Assembly (NCBI RefSeq): GCF_038025025.1 | Contig: NW_027117352.1 | Coordinates: 496,001-560,000 of the forward strand | Direction: 5' to 3' | Origin: Phyllosticta citribraziliensis | Lineage: Eukaryota | DNA length: 64,000 nt | In this document: one piece after another, positions 32,693 to 42,772 of the stretch | Layout: each line of letters opens with the position of its first letter | Numbering within the stretch: the first letter of the stretch is position 1 | The notes under the pieces: model-generated | Seen by the model: only the letters and a program-made list of their open reading frames with translations | Told to the model about the DNA's origin: nothing | Database searches by the model: none | Program-made: the position numbers and the translations under genes

Positions 32693-32933
32693 GGGGTGCG
32701 GCGACGGTAGGTTCATGTACGTAGCAAGAGAAGGATATAGAGAAAGAGGAAGAGGAAGAATGGAGGGCTGTTCGTGGTGTGGAGAGCTCAACTTCGCAAG
32801 AGGAAGATGGTGAACCGGAAAAGTTCTGCTCGCTTGCTTGCATGTTTGGTGGCTATTCTGCTTGGGATTCTAGATGGTGGTAGACCTTTTTTCTTTGCAT
32901 CGGACAACATCCACATCCACTTAGTCTCTTCAT

Positions 32934-34032
32934 GGCTCCCCGCCGTGCTCCCGCGTTGGCAGGAGGTACGCAACTTGCGTGAATGCCGCAGTGTAACGTC
33001 AGCTCTCAGAGTGGTCTTGTATGAAGCCTTCAATTCTCTCGTGTCTTCGAGAGGGTCGATAAAAAAGGAGAAAAAAGAGAAGACGAAGGCCCCCAGAAAC
33101 GGTGAGAAAAACTTGGAAACCAGCCAAAATCCAGAACCAACACCACAGAGCCCCATGTGCCCGGCTTTGGGAGCGGTAATGGTCATGTCATTAAGGGGGG
33201 TTCGGGGCGGGCGGCGGTCCAGGACAAAAGAAAGCAAAAAAGAGAGCGACACCACAAACACCACCCGCCAAAACCCACAACAAACACCGCACAACCGCGT
33301 GCCACCCCCTCAACGCCACCTCCTCCATCCCTCGCCTCCTCCGCAGCCAACTGGCTGCCACCTCGGCAGCAGCGTCGCCGCCCAACAAACAAAACAACAC
33401 CAGACAACAAAGACAACAAAGCCCCGCGAGCCGGGCCTGAACGCACGCCAGCGCCATAGGGGACGCCGGGGTCAACCACACCGCGGCAAAAAGATCCAAG
33501 ACCGCCCGGCACCGCCTCTGAGACATCCATCAGCGATGTTCGATCTGGAGACTCCGCCTTAGTGCTTGCGGCGTCTCGGTGAGCCCCCCAGGGAACAGCC
33601 TCACGTTGCGAGGCCGCAACAACGACGACATCAGAGTTTCCTCCACTCGGGGCGCGGCTGCCGGGCTGCAAGCCTTCGGTGTCATGTTCCCGGTGGTGTG
33701 GTGGCGATGGTTATGAGGAGGGAGCTATTGCATCATTAGCATGAGATCTTCAACAGACGCAAGCGAATGAGTTGTCTACGTACATGCTGGTGCTGGTGCT
33801 GGTGTTGTTGTTGTTGCTTCTGCTGCTGCTGCCGCAGCCGACTGCTTCCTGAGTTAGCAGTGTCTCAGAAATGCTGGATAAGATTGGACGAGGTTGCAAG
33901 AGAACGTACCCCTTGCCGCCGCTGCTGCCACCGCCGCCGCTTCTCCTGCTGTGGAAATTGTCAGTAAGTTGTTGAACAGGGAGATTTGAATGTGACGTAC
34001 CTCCTGCCAACGCGGGAGCACGGCGGGGAGCC
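32934..34032. repeat. Perfect 37-bp inverted repeat (arms 32934-32970 and 33996-34032)
   Basis: GGCTCCCCGCCGTGCTCCCGCGTTGGCAGGAGGTACG at the left arm and its exact reverse complement at the right arm. Confidence 0.9.
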
Positions 34033-34066
34033 CGTAGGCGAGTTCCAACGCCCCGGGAAACGACAT
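33191..34066 (-). pseudogene. Spliced membrane-protein paralogue 1 (low-complexity N-terminus, hydrophobic C-terminus), probably disrupted
   Basis: Three GTACGT...CTRAY...YAG introns (33949-34000, 33849-33909, 33725-33783). One spliced frame runs APRRAPALAG..RLRQQQQKQQQQHQHQHQH.. and, through a single TGA at 33530-33532, into hydrophobic ORF 33191-33526. Start codon unresolved. Confidence 0.45.
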
Positions 34067-35472
34067 GGCGGCGGGACGGGGAGCAAGAGGCTGGGGGCTG
34101 GACGCGGGCGGGCGAGACGCGAGAGTCTTGAGAGGTGAAGGGGAGAGCGAGAGCGAGAGGTATGGGCGTCGGGCGCGCGTGCAACTTTGAAAAGGGGGAA
34201 GAATGCTCTTGCAAGCGAACGATTGGACGGCGCGGCGGACGAAGAGGGTGCTTCAAGCAGTGAGTGGATGGTTGAGAGATGGAGGATGGAGTTTGGAGGA
34301 CGGAAGACGGAGGACGTTGGGCGGGGCGGCGTGCTCGGTCGTGTTGGCAACGACGGCAGCTGCGAGACGCGGGAAAGAGCACTTGCTTTGATCACCCCAC
34401 CGCCCCCATCGCGGCCGGAAGCGGGAACACCAGGGAAATCCGAAGAATGCTCCTGGAGTCCGAAGTTGACGGCAGACGACAGACAGCTCCCCGAGCTCAA
34501 GTCGGATGGAGGATGACCACTTTCTGGTGCGGCTCAATCCATGCCGTCCAAATCAAAGGCATGAATGCCATGTTGGCAAGGAACTTGACCAGATTTGGCA
34601 GTCACCTTTCCCAATGTTTGCTTGGCGAGACTGTGGCAGTGAATGATTGATGGCAGGGGACGGCGTGATGTCAGGAAGCATCACTTCTTCAGTCACACAA
34701 AACGTGGGCAAAGCGGGATGGATGGGAGACTCACTCAGATGAGTACATACAAAATTGGCTCGTTTTACGGATTAGTGGGTTACTGACTGTCGGACAGATT
34801 CCTTCTCGTCTCTTCGTCTTCTGCTCCTGCTCCCATATCCTCTCAGGGCATCCGCCTCCCAACCTTTTTTCTTTGCATCTCGTTCGACATCGACGTCCAC
34901 ACAGTCTCTCTTTCCATTGGATGCTCTTGAATGCTTCTTTTCCGTCTCTCTACTTCTTGTTCTTCTTGGTGGTCACTCTCCGTTCACCGAATGCTCCTTG
35001 GTTCTCTACCCTACCGCTTTGAGCTCGAGTGCTTCCTTCCCGTCCCTCTACGTGTTGTTTGTTGTTGTTGGGTGGTGATGGGCGTGATGGCGTGATGGCT
35101 GTAAGTGGGAAGCGCCCACGGTTGGAGCATCCACGCTCCCACCCCTTCTGTTTGCACCACTTGTGGAGCTCGGGCATCGAGCATTGGTTGGCAGGTCCCT
35201 CCTGTCGGTAGGTACCAGTGGCTAGATTGGCCGGTATGTTAGGCGGCACCGCCATGTACCTGAGAACGAGGCTTGGTCTCAAAAGCTGTGGCTCACGACA
35301 AGAGTACCAGGGAATCGGGAGTATTCATTTGCTCGAACAGACTACTGATGGGAAGCATTCATACCTAAGTCTGTGGCTGTCCACTGATATGGAGCATTCA
35401 AGCGTCTGAAAGTGGTGATTGGCATGGCTCAGGTTGGAGTGACCTCCCTCTCTGCCAGGCAGGTCTGCGGAA

Positions 35473-35519
35473 ACCGCAGCTTCACCGCAGCTTCACCGCA
35501 GCTTCACCGCAGCTTCACC
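35473..35519. repeat. 11-bp tandem repeat (ACCGCAGCTTC)x4
   Basis: Four exact copies plus ACC. Confidence 0.9.
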
Positions 35520-35791
35520 TTCCGCGTCACTTCCGGAGATTTCGAGGAAGCTTCAAAGGTTCATGTCTGTGTGTGCTCCTTCACCTTTATCGTTGCGACA
35601 GCAACGAGCTCGAATGCTCCCTGTGCTTATATGTGCCGGTCCCCCCTCTCCCCTGTTTTCGTTCTCTGGCACCACCACTGACGACCAATCTCTCGCAAAA
35701 GCAAAGAATATTTTTATCATCCAACGTCAATCACGCCGCCTCTTTTTTTTTTTTTTTTTGCCCGTCTCTCGCTCTCCCTCTCTCCCCCAAA

Positions 35792-36582
35792 ATGAACATC
35801 ATCGAGCTGGAGGAGCTGGGGGGCCACCCGGTGTCCGTACGTGGATCATTCACTTTAATCAAAGACGTCTGGGAACGTTGCTAATGACATCGACAAGACA
35901 GCGAAACAAGCCTCCGTCCCGTCGTTGAGGAGGAGGACACCGAGGCGGCACGGTGGCGGTGGCGGGAGCAGCGATGGCGACAGCGACAGCAGCGCCATGT
36001 ATGTGGACAACTTGCTTTCCATTGATCAAGCATCTCGGAGAACCTTGCTAATAGTTGTGATAGTACCGCCTGAGAGCGTGGCAGCGTGCGCTCCCTGCTC
36101 CGTCACCACCCCCTTCGCCTCCAGCTCCGCCGACCCCAACACCACCACCAACACCACCACCAACACCATCACCACCGCCACCACCACCACCATCACCACC
36201 AACACCACCAACACCACCACCTCAACTGATGTCTCCCCGGGCGGTCGGCCGGGCCAGGCCTTCGGCAAGCCTGTCGCGCCCTGGAGCCGTCCGGGGGGCG
36301 GCCGCCTTGATGGTGGTTGGTTGGTTGGTTGTCGTGGCTGTTTTGTGGTCGGCGGCGTCGCGCGGGCGGGCGCCCGAGGAGCGCAAAGCGCTCATGACCA
36401 AGCGAGTGGCGGCGGTGTCCGGTTTGGTGGTTCTGGGGGGGGTGGCAGTTGAGGGAGGAATGATGTGGTGGGAGAGGGGGAAGGGGGGATGGAGGGGGTT
36501 GGTTGGGGTGGTAAGAATTATTTTTGTTTTTTTGGTCGTCGCTGTTGCGGTGGTGGGGGCCGTGGTTGGATTTGTTTTGTAG
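35792..36582 (+). CDS. Spliced membrane-protein paralogue 2: proline-rich region plus three hydrophobic segments, unknown family
   Basis: Introns 35837-~35897 and 35999-36063. Last exon 36064-36582 is open: YRLRAWQRALPAPSPPPSPPAPPTPTPPP..QLMSPRAVGR..AAALMVVGWLVVVAVLW..VAAVSGLVVLGGVAV..IIFVFLVVAVAVVGAVVGFVL*. 5' end and start frame uncertain. Confidence 0.5.
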
Positions 36583-39500
36583 TTTTTTGTTTTTTTTTGT
36601 CCTCTCCGCCTCCCTCCCTAATGCAATTCTTCAAGTCTCCCACAATTCTTTCAAAATGATCCACGTGAAATGTGTCTTTCGACAAAGCACCGCTCTGAAA
36701 CGCATCTGCAAAGCAAAAGATTCAATTGCATTTGACCTTGAGCGAGGGCAAAGCAATGGCGGACAGCGCATGAATGCTTCCTAAGCGCGACTGTAGCAGT
36801 GAATGGATGCTCCCTAAGCGTGATTGCAATATCAGATTCCTTCACCTTGCCTTTTCTGCTCTTGGTCTGCCCGGTCCTGGGCATCGTTTAGAAGCGCGAT
36901 GGTGTCTGCCCATTTCTTTCTCCAGCGCTTCTTACTCATAATCCCAGATGTGCCCTCAAAGATGAAGAAGTCACGCTTCATGCCCCTGAGTCTCTTTTTA
37001 CCTTTGGAATCACGGCCACCTCCAGTTGTCAAGCTGTTTTTACGCAAACCGAGCTTTTCCTCAACACCATTCAGCCACCGCCGGTCGATATCTGCGTAGA
37101 AGTCTTTTCGCCTCCGTGCTTGCTCGAGATCGAATTGCCTTCGTTCCTCGTCCTGTTTAGCATCAAACTCGTGACCGTTTTCAATGGCCTCGGTATCGCG
37201 ATCGGCCTTTGGCCACAGGTTCAGTTTGCCGTTTTTGTATTTGCCGCACATGCGCTTCTTCTTCGTCGGGTTCCGTTTGTCGACAATGTCCGCGCACACG
37301 TCTGCGACGGGGATGTCGTGCTTACCCTTGACTTTTGGAGACAGTTCCAGCTTGTTGTCTTTGTATTTGCCGCAGAGACGCTGTGTTCCATTTCTCCCAT
37401 CTGGATAAGGAACGTCCGCACATGCATCGCCCGTAGGAGTATCTCGGCGTGTAAGTCGCCGTGCAAGCCGCCGTACAAGGCTGGCAGATCCTTGTTGTGC
37501 TTCAGGCTCCCGCTGCTGCTGCGACCCATTCGTCTGCCTTCTCTGCTCTTCATCGACACGGTCCTGGGCGTCATTCAACATCGCGATGGTCTTCGCCCAT
37601 TTCTTCCTACTCATAAAGCCAGATAGGCCTTCAGAAAGGAAAGAGCCTTTCTTGATGCCTTGTGGGATTGGCACCATCTTGCCGTTCTCGAGTTTGAAGC
37701 AGAGCCGCTGCGTTCCATTTCCTCCGCCGGGGAGTTCGTAAGGCACGTCGGTACATGTGTCGCCGTTGTCGCCGTTAGGAGCACCCCGGCGTTCAAGTCG
37801 TGCGGGTCTTTGCGGGTCCTCGGGCTTTTGCTGCTGCTGTGACTCCTTTTCCGCTCTGAGCGCATTGTCAACACGGTCCTGAGCACTGTTCAGGAGCTCG
37901 ATGGTCTTTGCCCATTTTTTCTCCCATTTCTCCCGGCTAATGGGTCCAGATAGGAGGCCTTCATGAAGGAAAGCGTTGCGCTCCTCGCCCCAGAGCCTCT
38001 TTTCACCTTTTTCGTTAAAGCCACCCAGAGTAGTCAAGCTATTGTTGCGGAGACCGAGGTATGCTTCAATGTCGTTGAACCATATGCGGGCGTCCCAGTG
38101 ATTGAATTGTCTCCATTCCTCTCTTTGGTTGCGGCCGAATTTGGCCTTTCTCTCCTTTTCTTCGCGTTCGAATTTTTTCTTCCTCTCCTTTTCATCGCGT
38201 TCGTACTGCTTTCGTTCCTCCTTCTGCTCGCCGTAGAATAACTTCCAACGTGAAGCCTCTTGCTCCATGCGACCTGCTTCTGGCCACATCTCCAATTCGC
38301 CGTTTTTTCTGTACATGCCACACAACCGCGTCTTCCAAGGCATGCCCTTTCGATCAACGGCGTCGACGCATATCTGTGTGAGGGGGATCTTGTCTTTGGG
38401 GCCGCTCACTGGCCGAAGGCGCATCCGCCCTTTTTTGAGTTCGCCGCAAAGGAACTGCCTCGTCCCCTCTAGGCCAGGGCGTTCATCCGGGATGTAGACA
38501 CACAAGCCGATGGGATGCTCTCCGCGTCGCACAAGTCGGTTAACGCCGTCTGGCTTTTTGACCAAGCCGCCCGAACCGACGTCTCGCTTTGCATTTTTCT
38601 CGGCGGCATCCTCGACGTGCTGGGCCTGGTTGAGAATCTTGATGGTCTCTGCCCATTTCTTGGCCCAGGCGTCTCTTTCTTCTCCGGTTTTTGCATCTTT
38701 GAAGGCGTAGAGGAATGCGGAAAACTTCCGTTTCGGTATTCTCTTCTTGCCGGACATGTCAACGCCGCCTGCAGTGGTGAGGCTGTTGTTGAGCAACACA
38801 CCCATCCTGGCCTCCAGTTCGTTGTAGTATTTCCGAAGGGTCCATTTTTCATATTCCTTCTTCCTCTGCTTCTCCTCGCGGTGGAACTGCTGTTTTTCCA
38901 GCTTCTGCCCGTCTTTGAATTGTTTGTGGAGCTTCTTCTGTTCGGCGATGAACTGGAGACTGCGCTCAGAAAGCGCTGATGTTTCAGGCGTCGCTCCCTC
39001 TCGTTTGACCAGTGAGCCTCTTGATTCGGCGCCCACTTTGCGCTCAGCGCCGAGCGTGGCGTTCCGCCGCTGTTCGTTGACGACCTCCTGGTTCCGGTTT
39101 AACCATATGAAGTACTTTTCATAGTGGTCCATCCAGTTTTCAGCGCTCATCCACTGCGCATCCTTAATGAGTTGCGCAGCGGTATTGGCCCAGTTGGACT
39201 GCTGAGCGTGACGGTTCGAGTTGCCCATGCTAGACAGAGCGCCCTCAAGCAGCCCCAGCTTCCGCTCGAGCCTCCGGAAGAGTTCCTCATGCCCTGTCTG
39301 GTCCTCGAGCTGCTCTTCGTGCCACTGTTGCCACTTTTTGAACGCCTTTCTTTCCTGGTCGCATTTCTGCTTCTTCGTCCTCTCCTCCCATTCGTTCCGC
39401 GGTGTGGGTAGGAAAGTGCACTCGTACGTGCCCATTACGGTTGTATAGGGCTTGATGGTTCCGAAAACTTTGTACCCGGTCGTTGGTCGCCATTGTGTGT

Positions 39501-40960
39501 CCCGTGTCTCCAAGAGCAAACCGTGTGTTGCAGTTGGGGTAACCAAAGATTCGTTCTCGTCACGTGGAAAGGCATGTTGAGACGTCTCCATGTTCGGGGC
39601 TGAAGTGACGAGTATTTCCGGAGACTTGAGGGCTGCAGTCGCAACATCTCGTTTCTCATATCGCGTGTACCATGCGAAATCCACTGCACCTGGACCGGCT
39701 ACAAAATGAACAATCAGCAACTGTCTGCAATTGGAGTTTTTCAGGCAAAAAGCAAGAAAACGCCCTTACCGGTGCAAGGCTTCGAATGCTCATGACTATA
39801 CGGATCGACGAACGGGTCCCAAGAAGGCGAAACACTCCCGGACGTGGGCGCAGGCGCAGACAAAGCTTCCCAGAAGAGGGAGAAGACGATGATGGCGACC
39901 CGGGAATGCATGGTGGTGCTGATGCTCGAGAAAAACAAACTTGATCAGAGTGTAGTCGATGGAAGAAGCGAAGAGTCCCAGGACTTTTTTATCTGGAGCC
40001 AGGAGGAGATAGTTGGGGAAGAGTTTTCTGGTTGCGTGGGGAGGTTTCTCCTCATTCCCAGACTTCAACCATGGAGTGGTGAACCTTTGTTCCAGGAGAA
40101 GCTGTCTGTCGTCTGCCGCAACGCTCGAACTTCGGAAGCATTCAACGATCCCCACACACATGCCCAGGGAGCATACACTCCCTACTGCAGTCACACCGAA
40201 GGAGAATTCATCCGCTGACTCCTGGAGCAAGAGACACTGACAAGCCAACGACCCCAAGATCCCGTTCAAGACCTAAAAGTGTCGGCATTGCCCGCCAACA
40301 GCAGGCCCCTCCCCGAAGTTTTGTTTCAGGAACGATCATGGTTTTTTCACAAACGAAGAAAGGAAACGAAAAGGACGAAGAATGAATCCACCAAACTGGA
40401 CTGCCAATCGTCGCTTCAAGGTACGTACAATTGAATACCTGGAGACCAATCTGCAGACGAGGACAACGAAGACGCATCCTCGGACTGAACCATTTGCTTT
40501 TCAAATGCGTCTCAGAGCCGACATTCAAAACACCAACAACGGCCAACAACCACAATGAAAATCCACCCTCAATCCCCAAACCGCCAAAACACCAGACACT
40601 CCCGCCACCTTCGATTTTGAAAGAATGGTGGGAGGCTTGAAGAACTTTCATAAGAGGCGGCGGCAGAGGAGACCAAAAAACAAGAAAAGAAAAAAACCTA
40701 CACCAAAAACTCAACTATGGCGCCCACCACCGCGACAGAGACGACCAAAAAAACAAAAAAACTCTCACCATCCCCCTCCCCCCTCTCCCACCACATCATT
40801 CTTCCCTCCCTCAACAACCACCCCCCCAGCACCAACAACCCGGACAGCCCCGCCGCCCTCCTCTCCACGCGCGCCCGGCCATCCTCGGGCGTTTCCACCC
40901 ACCACCAGACCACGCCAACCAACCAACAACAAGGCGGTAGCCACCCGGACGGCTTCAGGG
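36279..40960. repeat. Diverged ~350-380 bp inverted repeat (arms 36279-36656 and 40615-40960) bracketing the secreted precursor gene
   Basis: Shared blocks between left arm and reverse complement of right arm: GAATGATGTGGTGGGAGAGGGGG, TTTTTGTTTTTTTGGTCGTC, GCGGTGGTGGG, TTCTTCAAG.CTCCCAC.ATTCTTTCAAAA. Confidence 0.85.
36832..39911 (-). CDS. Secreted ~1002-aa modular repeat precursor with Kex2-type sites; unknown family, candidate effector/toxin polyprotein
   Basis: Exon 1 39911-39770 encodes signal peptide MHSRVAIIVFSLFWEALSA/PAPT; 71-nt intron 39699-39769 (GTAAGG...GCTGAT...TAG) splices in frame to a 2867-nt open exon with internal repeats (NSLTTxGG; KKWAxTIxxLNxAQ; Cys-pair ...RLCGxY) and YEKR, LVKR, LVRR, LERR, LVRR/LARR/LTRR sites. 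Confidence 0.85.
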
Positions 40961-41730
40961 CTGGTCACGTCCTTGTGGCGAATATTGTACATGGCGGCGG
41001 CAGGAGCGCGAGAGGAGCCAGAATCTGATGTCGGCGCCGAGAGGGCCAGGCATGTCTGAGGGCTGCCGACGGGCGCGCGAAGGAGAGAGGAGAGAGACGG
41101 CGCAGGTTGTTTGACAGCCGACCGGAAAAGAGGACTGAGGTCGCGGAGCTCCTGGTGGAGCAAGAGCAGAATCGCCGTCCTGAGAAACATCAGCAACTGA
41201 TCGGCAAGCAATTCCAGAGGGTCGAAGAATGAAACCTACACCGTGTCCGCCTGCACACAGACGTGGAGCCTTTGGCCAGCGTTGATGCCTTCGAGGCGAT
41301 GCTCAAAAGCCGAATTGGCACCTTGAGAAATGTCAGCAACTGAATGAAAGCCAAGCGTTTCGGGAGTGAAGCTTACATTGTACACAGCTGGCCCTACTTG
41401 TGGCTCAGCACGCGGACGAGCAGCCCGAAATGTTGGTGCTGGACGGGTGCAACGAAGACGAGCCGCCGCAGGGAGTGCTGCGAGGTCTTGAGCGGCCAAG
41501 CTCGCGGAGGAACGACAGAAGAGAAAGGAGAGAGTGGTCGTGGGCGAAATTTTGGAGGTTGGCCGATGGATGGGGACGACGATGGAGGATAATGGATGGA
41601 GGATGAATGATGGATGATGATGGGAGACAGGCGAGCTGGGGGGACGGGGGAGGTCATAGTCATATCCCATTGTTGCTAGGGAAATGACGAAACGGAAGGC
41701 ACTCACCTACCTTACCTGCCCGAACGTCAT
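40698..41730 (-). pseudogene. Spliced membrane-protein paralogue 3, frameshifted
   Basis: PEAVRVATALLLVGW (ORF 40765-41211) and RAAGLSGLLVLGG..MMWWERGEG..FVFLVVSVAVVGAIVEFLV* (ORF 40698-40922) match paralogue 2 but lie in two frames; intron-like GT...GCTGAY...AG segments near 41180-41240 and 41320-41376; 5' limit uncertain. Confidence 0.55.
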
Positions 41731-42772
41731 GAGCGCCGAGAGTGCCAAAGAAGCTGCGGCTTCCGCAATGGAAGCTGAGAAGGGAGGTCGCACCACCTTT
41801 GGCCACCCATGAGCCAGCAGTTGCAGCACACGGAGCCTCCCCATCACTACTCCCACCCACCTACCTACCTACATGTACCTACCTCACTTGGCGACCACCT
41901 GTCAGCCAATCGGTCGATCACGACACCACAGGTATGTAGCAAGTACATGTAGAGAAAGAAAGACGTCGCCGTCGTCCCTCACGCCTGTCTGAGCTGAGCT
42001 GAGCTGACGAGAAGCTTGCAGTTGCTGCAGTCCAGCCATACCCCCTCAGAGCCTCTTTCTCGACCAGGCAGGCAGTCGGTCAGTCGTTTCTCAACACCAC
42101 AGGAGAAGGACCTTGGAAGGAGAGTCCCTCGGAGACAGATTGCAGGCGTCGGATCGAGGGCGAGGAATCAGAGCCGCGACGGACAATGCCTGGTCGAGGT
42201 AAGGTACCTAGCCAGCCAGCAGTCAGTACTGTTCAACAAGCGCGTGTGTGCGTGGTCAAGTGTGCGTAGTCACTGACTCCGCTGTCCAATTCCTCCCCCA
42301 TAACTCCATCCAGTCTCCTCTACTGCCAGCGAGGACCTTCCACTGCCATCACGCACCGCAAGCACCAGACCATCAATCAACCCAGCCGTGTGAGAAGAAA
42401 GCATTCCGCACGCCCCCAGAGAAGTAGGTAGGTAGACAAGCAGACGACGCACCAAGTCAGTAAAAGCGTGTAATCATTAAGCATTACCTACCCACCCTCC
42501 CCCAGCGCAACCTACGGCATTCATTTTTGCAGCTCGAAGCCCTTGGTCAAGCCCCGGATCATTTCCCTCTCCTCCTCTCCGTTCCACCGTCCAGCCAATG
42601 ACAACAAATGCCCCTCGCACATCATCCCATCGGCTCAAAACAAAGAAAAAACAGCAGACAGCTGCACCATCGCAAGAATAAATGCTGCTCCAATCGTACA
42701 GCGGGTAGACGCACCAACGAGACAAATGCTTTTTGAATGGAATGGCAAAACAGCGCTAGATGACAATTGACT

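Follow-up and report, generated by a model that had tools for sequence, protein, structure and literature searches.

The stretch of DNA analysed here (the window) comprises 64,000 nucleotides of Phyllosticta citribraziliensis, positions 496,001 to 560,000 of contig NW_027117352.1, and carries on its minus strand, at 36832-39911, a gene for a protein of 1002 amino acids (aa) in which a signal-peptide-like leader is followed by five units, built from two kinds of module and separated by dibasic sites of the type preferred by the fungal protease Kex2. The protein is a plausible Kex2-processed polyprotein with unusually large units. All coordinates below are positions in this 64-kb window, and residue numbers are those of the spliced 1002-aa product.

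The longest stop-to-stop frame at the locus runs over 977 codons (36832-39765, minus strand). Exon 1 (39770-39911) opens with an ATG at 39909-39911 in the context CACCATG and supplies 47 codons plus one base, after which a phase 1 intron of 71 nt (39699-39769), with a GTAAGG donor, a CTGAT branch-like site and a TAG acceptor, leads into exon 2 (36832-39698), consisting of 954 full codons (36835-39698) and the TGA stop codon at 36832-36834. Two other AG acceptors can be read within the intron, both of which would lead to stop codons if used. The spliced product is identical, letter for letter, to the deposited "uncharacterized protein" J3D65DRAFT_672332 of P. citribraziliensis, so that the leader exon is already part of the public model. 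A first-pass annotation of this DNA had proposed an upstream exon missed by the open reading frame (ORF) track and a product of about 1002 aa; the 1002-aa product and the 71-nt intron were both reproduced, while the exon proved to have been missed only by a bacterial-style ORF track and is present in the deposited annotation. This identity, together with the retention of an orthologue in P. citrichinensis, argues that the gene model is real. Insertions and deletions within the gene in the contigs of relatives are net multiples of three, a weak indication given the small number of contigs; none of the contigs in four sequencing runs, which are of DNA or of unspecified kind, joins across the intron, and a tblastn search of the window with all units gave no paralogue outside the gene (best E 0.078).

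The leader occupies residues 1-19 and reads MHSR, then VAIIVFSLFW, then EALSA, with small residues at its end. Residues 5-19 form the sole strongly hydrophobic 15-aa window of the protein, with a Kyte-Doolittle mean of 2.0, and no membrane segment follows the leader, the next-best window reaching 0.93 and the mature chain having a grand average of hydropathy (GRAVY) of -1.14. As the leader is also kept in the P. citrichinensis protein and in the differently built P. citriasiana protein, the proposal of an N-terminal signal peptide, judged by reading and hydropathy, gains support. Between leader and unit 1 lies a putative pro-region (residues 20-64; 39649-39854, a span that includes the intron), rich in P, S and G, which ends in YEKR (39649-39660), perhaps like the pro-domains of single pro-domain (K2PP) effectors that end in a Kex2 motif, and which lies outside both of the structure models described below. 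It holds the unpaired Cys46; with the pro-region set aside, the cysteines of units 1 to 5 number 2, 0, 4, 2 and 4, an even count in each.

The units were defined by splitting the chain at its dibasic sites and then comparing the pieces pairwise. Unit 1 (residues 65-280; 39001-39648) contains a diverged H-like module with Cys141 and Cys160 and ends in LVKR (39001-39012), and unit 2 (residues 281-439; 38524-39000) consists of an H module only, with four 11-residue repeats, ending in LVRR (38524-38535). In unit 3 (residues 440-685; 37786-38523) two C modules (38395-38514 and 38263-38382) precede an H module with five 11-residue repeats and the unit ends in LERR (37786-37797), while unit 4 (residues 686-799; 37444-37785) combines one C module (37648-37767) with the C-terminal half of an H module and ends in LVRR-LARR-LTRR (37444-37479). 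Unit 5 (residues 800-1002; 36835-37443) again has two C modules (37315-37434 and 37189-37308) and then an H module with three 11-residue repeats, the protein ending just past it. This layout, which the first-pass annotation had read from the letters as H in units 2, 3 and 5, a diverged form in unit 1, a half in unit 4 and five copies of C, was borne out by the pairwise alignments, and the observation as a whole held in every particular.

Units 3 and 5 can be aligned from end to end (219 aa, 38% identity, E 2e-44), and the H part of unit 2 matches those of units 3 and 5 at 38-39% identity (E about 1e-17). For unit 4 the half-H module gave E-values of 6e-12 and 4e-16 and the C module 2.6e-9 and 0.002; the H-like match of unit 1 is weak (24% identity, E 0.003, against unit 3). 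The five C modules contain cysteine pairs spaced 16-18 residues apart (447/465, 491/507, 696/714, 807/823 and 849/865), with best pairwise E-values of 5e-12 to 6e-10, the most diverged being the first copy in unit 3 (best E 0.032). The long helix of the H module is a charged 11-residue repeat with a consensus of roughly K-E-x-K-K-x-F-E-R-x-E, in which each repeat has one invariant aromatic residue and almost nothing else that is hydrophobic. These repeats are kept in the P. citrichinensis and P. citriasiana proteins; the helices of units 3 and 5 differ in length by exactly 22 residues, and the DNA of unit 3 shows a 33-nt tandem repeat at 38136-38223. Units 2-5 span residues 281-1002, that is 722 of the 1002 aa, and are basic and very hydrophilic (isoelectric point 9.4-9.9, net charge +6 to +13, GRAVY -1.0 to -1.3), and the predicted masses of units 1 to 5 are 25, 18, 29, 13 and 23 kDa.

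The dibasic sites that had been listed at first reading are all present: YEKR at residues 61-64, LVKR at 277-280, LVRR at 436-439, LERR at 682-685 and LVRRLARRLTRR at 788-799. The motif L-x-[KR]-R occurs seven times in the 1002-aa protein, compared with a mean of 1.33 in shuffled sequences, and none of 5000 shuffles reached seven. Six of these seven copies close the four inter-unit spacers, so that every boundary carries the motif (4/4), and the seventh, LFRR at 187, lies inside the helix of unit 1. Before unit 5 the motif is tripled, which in the DNA takes the form of a 12-nt tandem repeat (37448-37479). Kex2 favours cleavage after Arg (P1) when P2 is Lys or Arg and P4 is aliphatic, Leu included, as summarised in the passages on its specificity in PMC8528282, and the spacer sites, which fit this preference at all three positions, are therefore close to ideal for the enzyme. 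The same arrangement is found in the relatives. In the P. citrichinensis protein the motif occurs six times against 1.12 expected (2 of 5000 shuffles), with five of the six at unit ends, namely at all three inter-unit boundaries and, in addition, after the last unit, within a C-terminal extension that has no counterpart in P. citribraziliensis; and the single C-C-H unit of P. citriasiana is flanked by LARR and LRRR, which accounts for both of its motifs. The sequence around the motifs varies while L-x-[KR]-R persists, the spacers being rich in Q, P, G and S.

Two further signals were looked for at these sites and rejected. Dipeptides of the Ste13 type (X-A or X-P) do not follow the sites in any consistent pattern, the residues found there being DV, EG, GE, GA and DT, and an RxLR- or PEXEL-like host-targeting motif does not apply to the spacers, in which the order of residues is R-L-x-R-R and not R-x-L-R.

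The gene family was found in Phyllosticta only. A word-indexed full-length search returned three proteins among 8000 scored candidates, belonging to P. citribraziliensis itself, P. citrichinensis and P. citriasiana, and a search for shorter homologues found none among 6466 candidates. A HMMER profile search of 1.84 billion cluster representatives gave three proteins at E <= 0.001, from P. citriasiana, P. citrichinensis and P. citricarpa; these representatives are clustered at 50% identity, so other Phyllosticta species may hold further copies, and the profile, of 615 positions, also took in the unrelated tail of the P. citriasiana protein, which may have diluted it slightly. In total four proteins are known from these searches. 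On present evidence the family appears confined to Phyllosticta: P. citribraziliensis and P. citrichinensis have the complete form and P. citriasiana a reduced one, while P. citricarpa has a fragment, a 173-aa hypothetical protein that comprises the first half of an H module only and has no leader. According to PMC9073689, P. citribraziliensis, known only as a Citrus endophyte in Brazil, is most closely related to P. citrichinaensis (in the spelling of that source).

The P. citrichinensis orthologue is 81% identical over 895 aligned columns and is without a block of 106 residues (P. citribraziliensis 667-772) that comprises spacer 3 together with the C module and most of the half-H module of unit 4. 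This block amounts to about one unit, so that the number of units differs between the two sister species. The missing block and the 12-nt tandem triple site are each in keeping with a cassette whose evolution proceeds one unit at a time: the evolutionary unit would appear to be C-C-H bounded by L-x-R-R, with the helix changing in length by whole 11-residue steps and the number of units probably changing by unequal recombination, as with unit 4, found in P. citribraziliensis but lacking in P. citrichinensis.

In P. citriasiana the C-C-H unit and its LRRR are followed, at residues 271-639, by a proline-rich tail of about 370 aa that matches neither anything in the window nor any Pfam family; either the unit stands in another gene context there or the gene model is a fusion.

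None of the searches for described families gave a match, in agreement with the earlier statement that the family was not recognised. For the exon-2 protein, Pfam had no family with E <= 1, and the individual units drew only noise below the threshold; the PDB sequences, searched with a profile, likewise gave noise only (best E 0.032). Foldseek, run against the PDB with a low-confidence model, found nothing at E <= 0.001, and no hit from the ESM Atlas could be used. In a VIA-align comparison with 48,161 chains the best Z was 5.1; this match, to a Ku-like chain, and the other, helical matches were set aside as noise level for a low-confidence model. With models of such low confidence, the modules may still have a known fold.

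Two AlphaFold (AF2) runs were made from very shallow alignments, giving a model of unit 5 with a mean predicted local distance difference test score (pLDDT) of 60.7 and a predicted template modelling score (pTM) of 0.30, and a model of units 2-5 with a mean pLDDT of 50.1 and a pTM of 0.19. In these models the C module is predicted as a mini-domain of about 35 aa with three strands, and the H module as a helix of great length (45-71 residues) followed, after a loop, by a short helix and then by a C-terminal one of about 32 residues, a pattern of secondary structure that recurs faithfully across the units. The three spacers of the model of units 2-5 are coil with the lowest pLDDT (10-residue blocks of 25-31), at positions 133-164, 390-414 and 489-523 of the model, which correspond to residues 413-444, 670-694 and 769-803.

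We consider it somewhat better than an even prospect that this Phyllosticta-restricted orphan gene encodes a 1002-aa secretory precursor that is processed into about five related basic proteins. In such a pathway the N-terminal leader would direct the chain into the endoplasmic reticulum and each C module would form one disulfide; a late-Golgi kexin (the Kex2 orthologue) would then cut after L-x-K/R-R in the flexible spacers and probably also after YEKR at the end of the 45-aa pro-region, releasing the proteins that correspond to units 1-5, of which units 2-5 would be strongly basic and very hydrophilic. The single hydrophobic leader, the placement and persistence of L-x-[KR]-R, the low-confidence coil of the spacers and the even cysteine count of each predicted product speak for this reading. 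What stood of the interpretation given in the first-pass annotation is the leader, the two-module layout, the Kex2-type motifs at all four boundaries and the absence of a match to anything described; its label of a "multi-effector or toxin cassette" was not supported, since no feature is specific to effectors or toxins, and either role would be speculation.

Several observations weigh against this processing scheme or against the product sizes that it implies. The motif count in P. citriasiana is not enriched when taken by itself (477 of 5000 shuffles), and neither is plain [KR]R clearly enriched in the P. citribraziliensis protein (24 against 17.8 expected; 313 of 5000 shuffles), where dibasic pairs are common because K and R together make up about 19% of residues. 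Since the units duplicate together with their spacers, and the three informative species are close relatives, the spacer motif could have been kept by descent. A conserved G-x-K-R is present in the loop of each complete H module (residues 366-367, 614-615 and 949-950), and these loops are also coil, with pLDDT below 50, so that the models cannot separate the spacer sites from the internal ones, both lying in coil of similarly low confidence. Both models are weak and the module folds accordingly tentative. The release of products as proteins of 110-250 aa is for this reason uncertain, and they could be smaller, because the conserved G-x-K-R sits in a low-confidence loop.

Among the alternatives, the likeliest, which we nevertheless regard as rather unlikely, is that the protein is secreted and remains largely intact as a modular extracellular or wall-associated repeat protein, with the L-x-R-R spacers acting as flexible or charged linkers, or with trimming of the K2PP type at the N-terminal pro-region only. 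Large secreted repeat proteins are common in fungi, polymorphism in unit number is a usual trait of surface repeat proteins that stay uncleaved as well, helices that are rigid and charged would suit a spacer role, and the case for cleavage is built on sequence motifs. Such a protein would nevertheless carry an optimal Kex2 motif at every unit boundary in three proteins, tripled before unit 5 and placed in predicted coil, and an exposed L-x-R-R passing through the Golgi is expected to be cut, judging from what is set out on Kex2 motifs in PMC8528282.

The possibility that the gene encodes a classical precursor of short peptides, in which kexin would cut most KR and RR pairs, including G-x-K-R in H and KKKR in C, as in Kex2-processed repeat proteins (KEPs) or in precursors of peptides that are made on ribosomes and modified after translation (RiPPs), seems improbable to us. 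It draws on the 24 [KR]R sites of the protein, on the presence of G-x-K-R in low-confidence loops of all complete H modules of both P. citribraziliensis and P. citrichinensis, and on the start of the half-H module of unit 4 close to the G-x-K-R position. Against it, pieces of 126 and 176 aa remain even after in-silico cutting at every KR and RR; the repeats themselves are of some length and show predicted secondary structure and cysteines that come in pairs; and P4 at the internal sites is Gly, outside the preferred residues listed in the part of PMC8528282 on cleavage preference. The surroundings speak against it as well: among 117 ORFs of at least 100 aa between 25.4 and 51 kb there was no match at E <= 1e-5 to DUF3328/UstYa, tyrosinase, methyltransferase or other RiPP-tailoring families, which makes a ustiloxin-type (dikaritin) precursor unlikely, with the limit that the scan was made from stop to stop and that exons shorter than 100 codons could escape it.

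Least probable, with very little likelihood in our judgement, is that the protein is not secreted at all, being a charged coiled-coil or single-helix protein of the cell interior to which annotation has wrongly given a leader exon, or that the gene is a lineage-specific orphan in decay. In favour of this, the E/K/R-rich helices and KKKR-like patches do resemble those of nuclear or cytoskeletal proteins, and the family is tiny, with only a 173-aa leaderless fragment in P. citricarpa. Against it, the sister species retains the 977-codon frame with 81% identity at the protein level, the leader is kept in three proteins, the gene has strong splice signals and a start codon in the context CACCATG, the pairing of cysteines within each C module hints at an oxidising compartment, and the indels in the few contigs of relatives keep the frame.

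If the precursor is indeed cleaved at its spacers, its place among known fungal Kex2 substrates can be considered by comparison with the groups already described. Le Marquer et al. (2019) define KEPs, in the selection rules given in PMC6339444, by a signal peptide, no membrane segment and at least three repeats with KR, RR or KK between them that make up at least 15% of the length, and by these rules the Phyllosticta protein would formally count as one, having a leader, no transmembrane segment, at least three repeats with sites between them, and repeats that fill most of the chain (722/1002 aa). The difference lies in the repeats themselves, as the units measure 114-246 aa and are of two module types with predicted structure and disulfides, whereas KEP peptides measure 8-55 aa; nor are there DUF3328 neighbours among the ORFs of at least 100 aa or any sequence relation to a KEP family. 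The screen of Umemura (2020), as its filter is described in PMC7329392, drops proteins with any separated piece above 100 aa, and the two large fragments mentioned above, of 126 and 176 aa after cutting at KR and RR, exceed that size and put the Phyllosticta protein outside the screen. The name Phyllosticta does not occur in the main text of either PMC6339444 or PMC7329392.

Rep1 (652 aa) and Hum3 (828 aa) of Ustilago maydis are also large secreted precursors with imperfect repeats separated by Kex2 sites, in the account given in PMC4617103. According to the sections of that paper on Kex2-processed repeat proteins, repeats are 18-55 aa long, Rep1 also yields one piece of 228 aa and Hum3 has, behind its repeats, a folded hydrophobin domain, and the repeats of Rep1 and Hum3 are amphipathic, 31-55 aa in length and form surface fibrils; those of the Phyllosticta protein are hydrophilic and basic, exceed them several times in length and come in two kinds that are shuffled. 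Rep1 and Hum3 are moreover basidiomycete proteins without sequence similarity to it. The K2PP effectors (SnTox3, ToxA and SIX1/4/6) would be similar in having an N-terminal, probably unstructured pro-region that ends in a Kex2 motif, with the same LxxR/KR/RR logic, and differ in that they have one cut and one mature domain (PMC8528282, in the sections on these effectors), while the Phyllosticta protein has four or more further sites between repeated units. The gene would combine a K2PP-like N-terminal pro-region with repeated two-module units, as a variation on the general theme of Kex2 precursors without membership of any sequence family.

Killer preprotoxins (K1, K28 and KP6) and Candida Ece1, which the first-pass annotation had also brought in, are likewise single secretory precursors that Kex2 cuts into several functional chains; the chains of the preprotoxins are unlike one another and reassemble into one toxin, and Ece1 gives short peptides. 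To our knowledge none of them contains these modules, and the PDB-sequence, Foldseek and VIA-align searches gave no sequence or fold match for the Phyllosticta protein. Outside the fungi, the nematode ABA-1-type polyprotein allergens consist of tandem helix-rich units of about 130 aa with basic proprotein-convertase sites, which yield separate small proteins from one transcript; these are animal proteins with a single kind of unit, which binds lipid, and with furin-type R-x-K/R-R sites. We liken the Phyllosticta polyprotein to these nematode antigens by analogy only and claim no homology.

A more specific form of the proposal, which we put forward tentatively and with less confidence than secretion and processing as such, is that the gene encodes a fungal polyprotein of folded proteins, in which four to five paralogous, strongly basic proteins, each made of single-disulfide beta mini-domains and a charged helix of 11-residue repeats, are released from one transcript's product by kexin at the L-x-R-R spacers. 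If true, fungi would use Kex2 in a third way, in addition to KEPs and K2PP effectors. PMC8528282, in its sections on classification, recognises two classes, precursors that release peptides and the single pro-domain effectors, and a precursor releasing several folded multi-module proteins would fall between them. Such precursors would be missed by surveys of Kex2 substrates, because these seek short repeated peptides and one of them, by the filter given in PMC7329392, drops pieces above 100 aa. The gene would also provide a compact test case for the growth of an orphan secreted protein by module shuffling, gain and loss of whole units and lengthening of a helix in 33-nt steps. The cassette, if this is true, would have been born, expanded and lost within one genus, a history that could be relevant to how citrus Phyllosticta differ in lifestyle; citrus-associated species of different lifestyles do differ in its presence, yet this pattern also follows phylogeny, which makes it only a lead. 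Should the protein be uncleaved or unexpressed, it would be just another lineage-specific repeat protein.

As for function, our best guess is that the products are extracellular proteins that bind surfaces or polyanions at the interface between fungus and plant or between fungus and microbe. This guess is based on the strong charge, the hydrophilicity and the single-helix-like charged 11-residue repeat with its aromatic stripe.

The gene lies among housekeeping genes, with RINT1, Nop9, a pyridoxal phosphate (PLP)-dependent decarboxylase, an Exo1-like XPG nuclease, Tma16, MAM33, a mitochondrial carrier and a DUF2434 protein as neighbours. Between the PLP-dependent decarboxylase and the Exo1-like XPG nuclease there are about 10 kb (32700-42750) in which no ORF has a Pfam match, and this interval, which includes the gene, looks like a lineage-specific island.

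An old inverted duplication flanks the gene (36278-36657 and 40614-40961, 70% identity over 393 nt). Its arms carry the hydrophobic C-terminal ends of the ORFs at 36064-36579 (plus strand) and 40701-40964 (minus strand), both of which end in ...MMWWERG...FVFLVV.VAVVGA.V and have no Pfam match, so that the polyprotein gene would be enclosed by two copies, inverted and diverged, of a small membrane-protein-like gene. A second pair of inverted repeats, of 44-45 nt and 80-84% identity, is found at 34445-34488 and 40100-40143, its right arm lying just upstream of the gene, and a CCACCA microsatellite at 36136-36221, within the island, would encode a tract rich in Pro or Thr. The segment 36764-36838, which lies just beyond the stop codon on its 3' side, contains two similar copies of about 30 nt and has no second copy elsewhere in the window; in a run of a relative it behaves as a dispersed high-copy repeat, with a summed contig depth of about 1280 compared with about 70 over the gene, and with many loose ends and joints.

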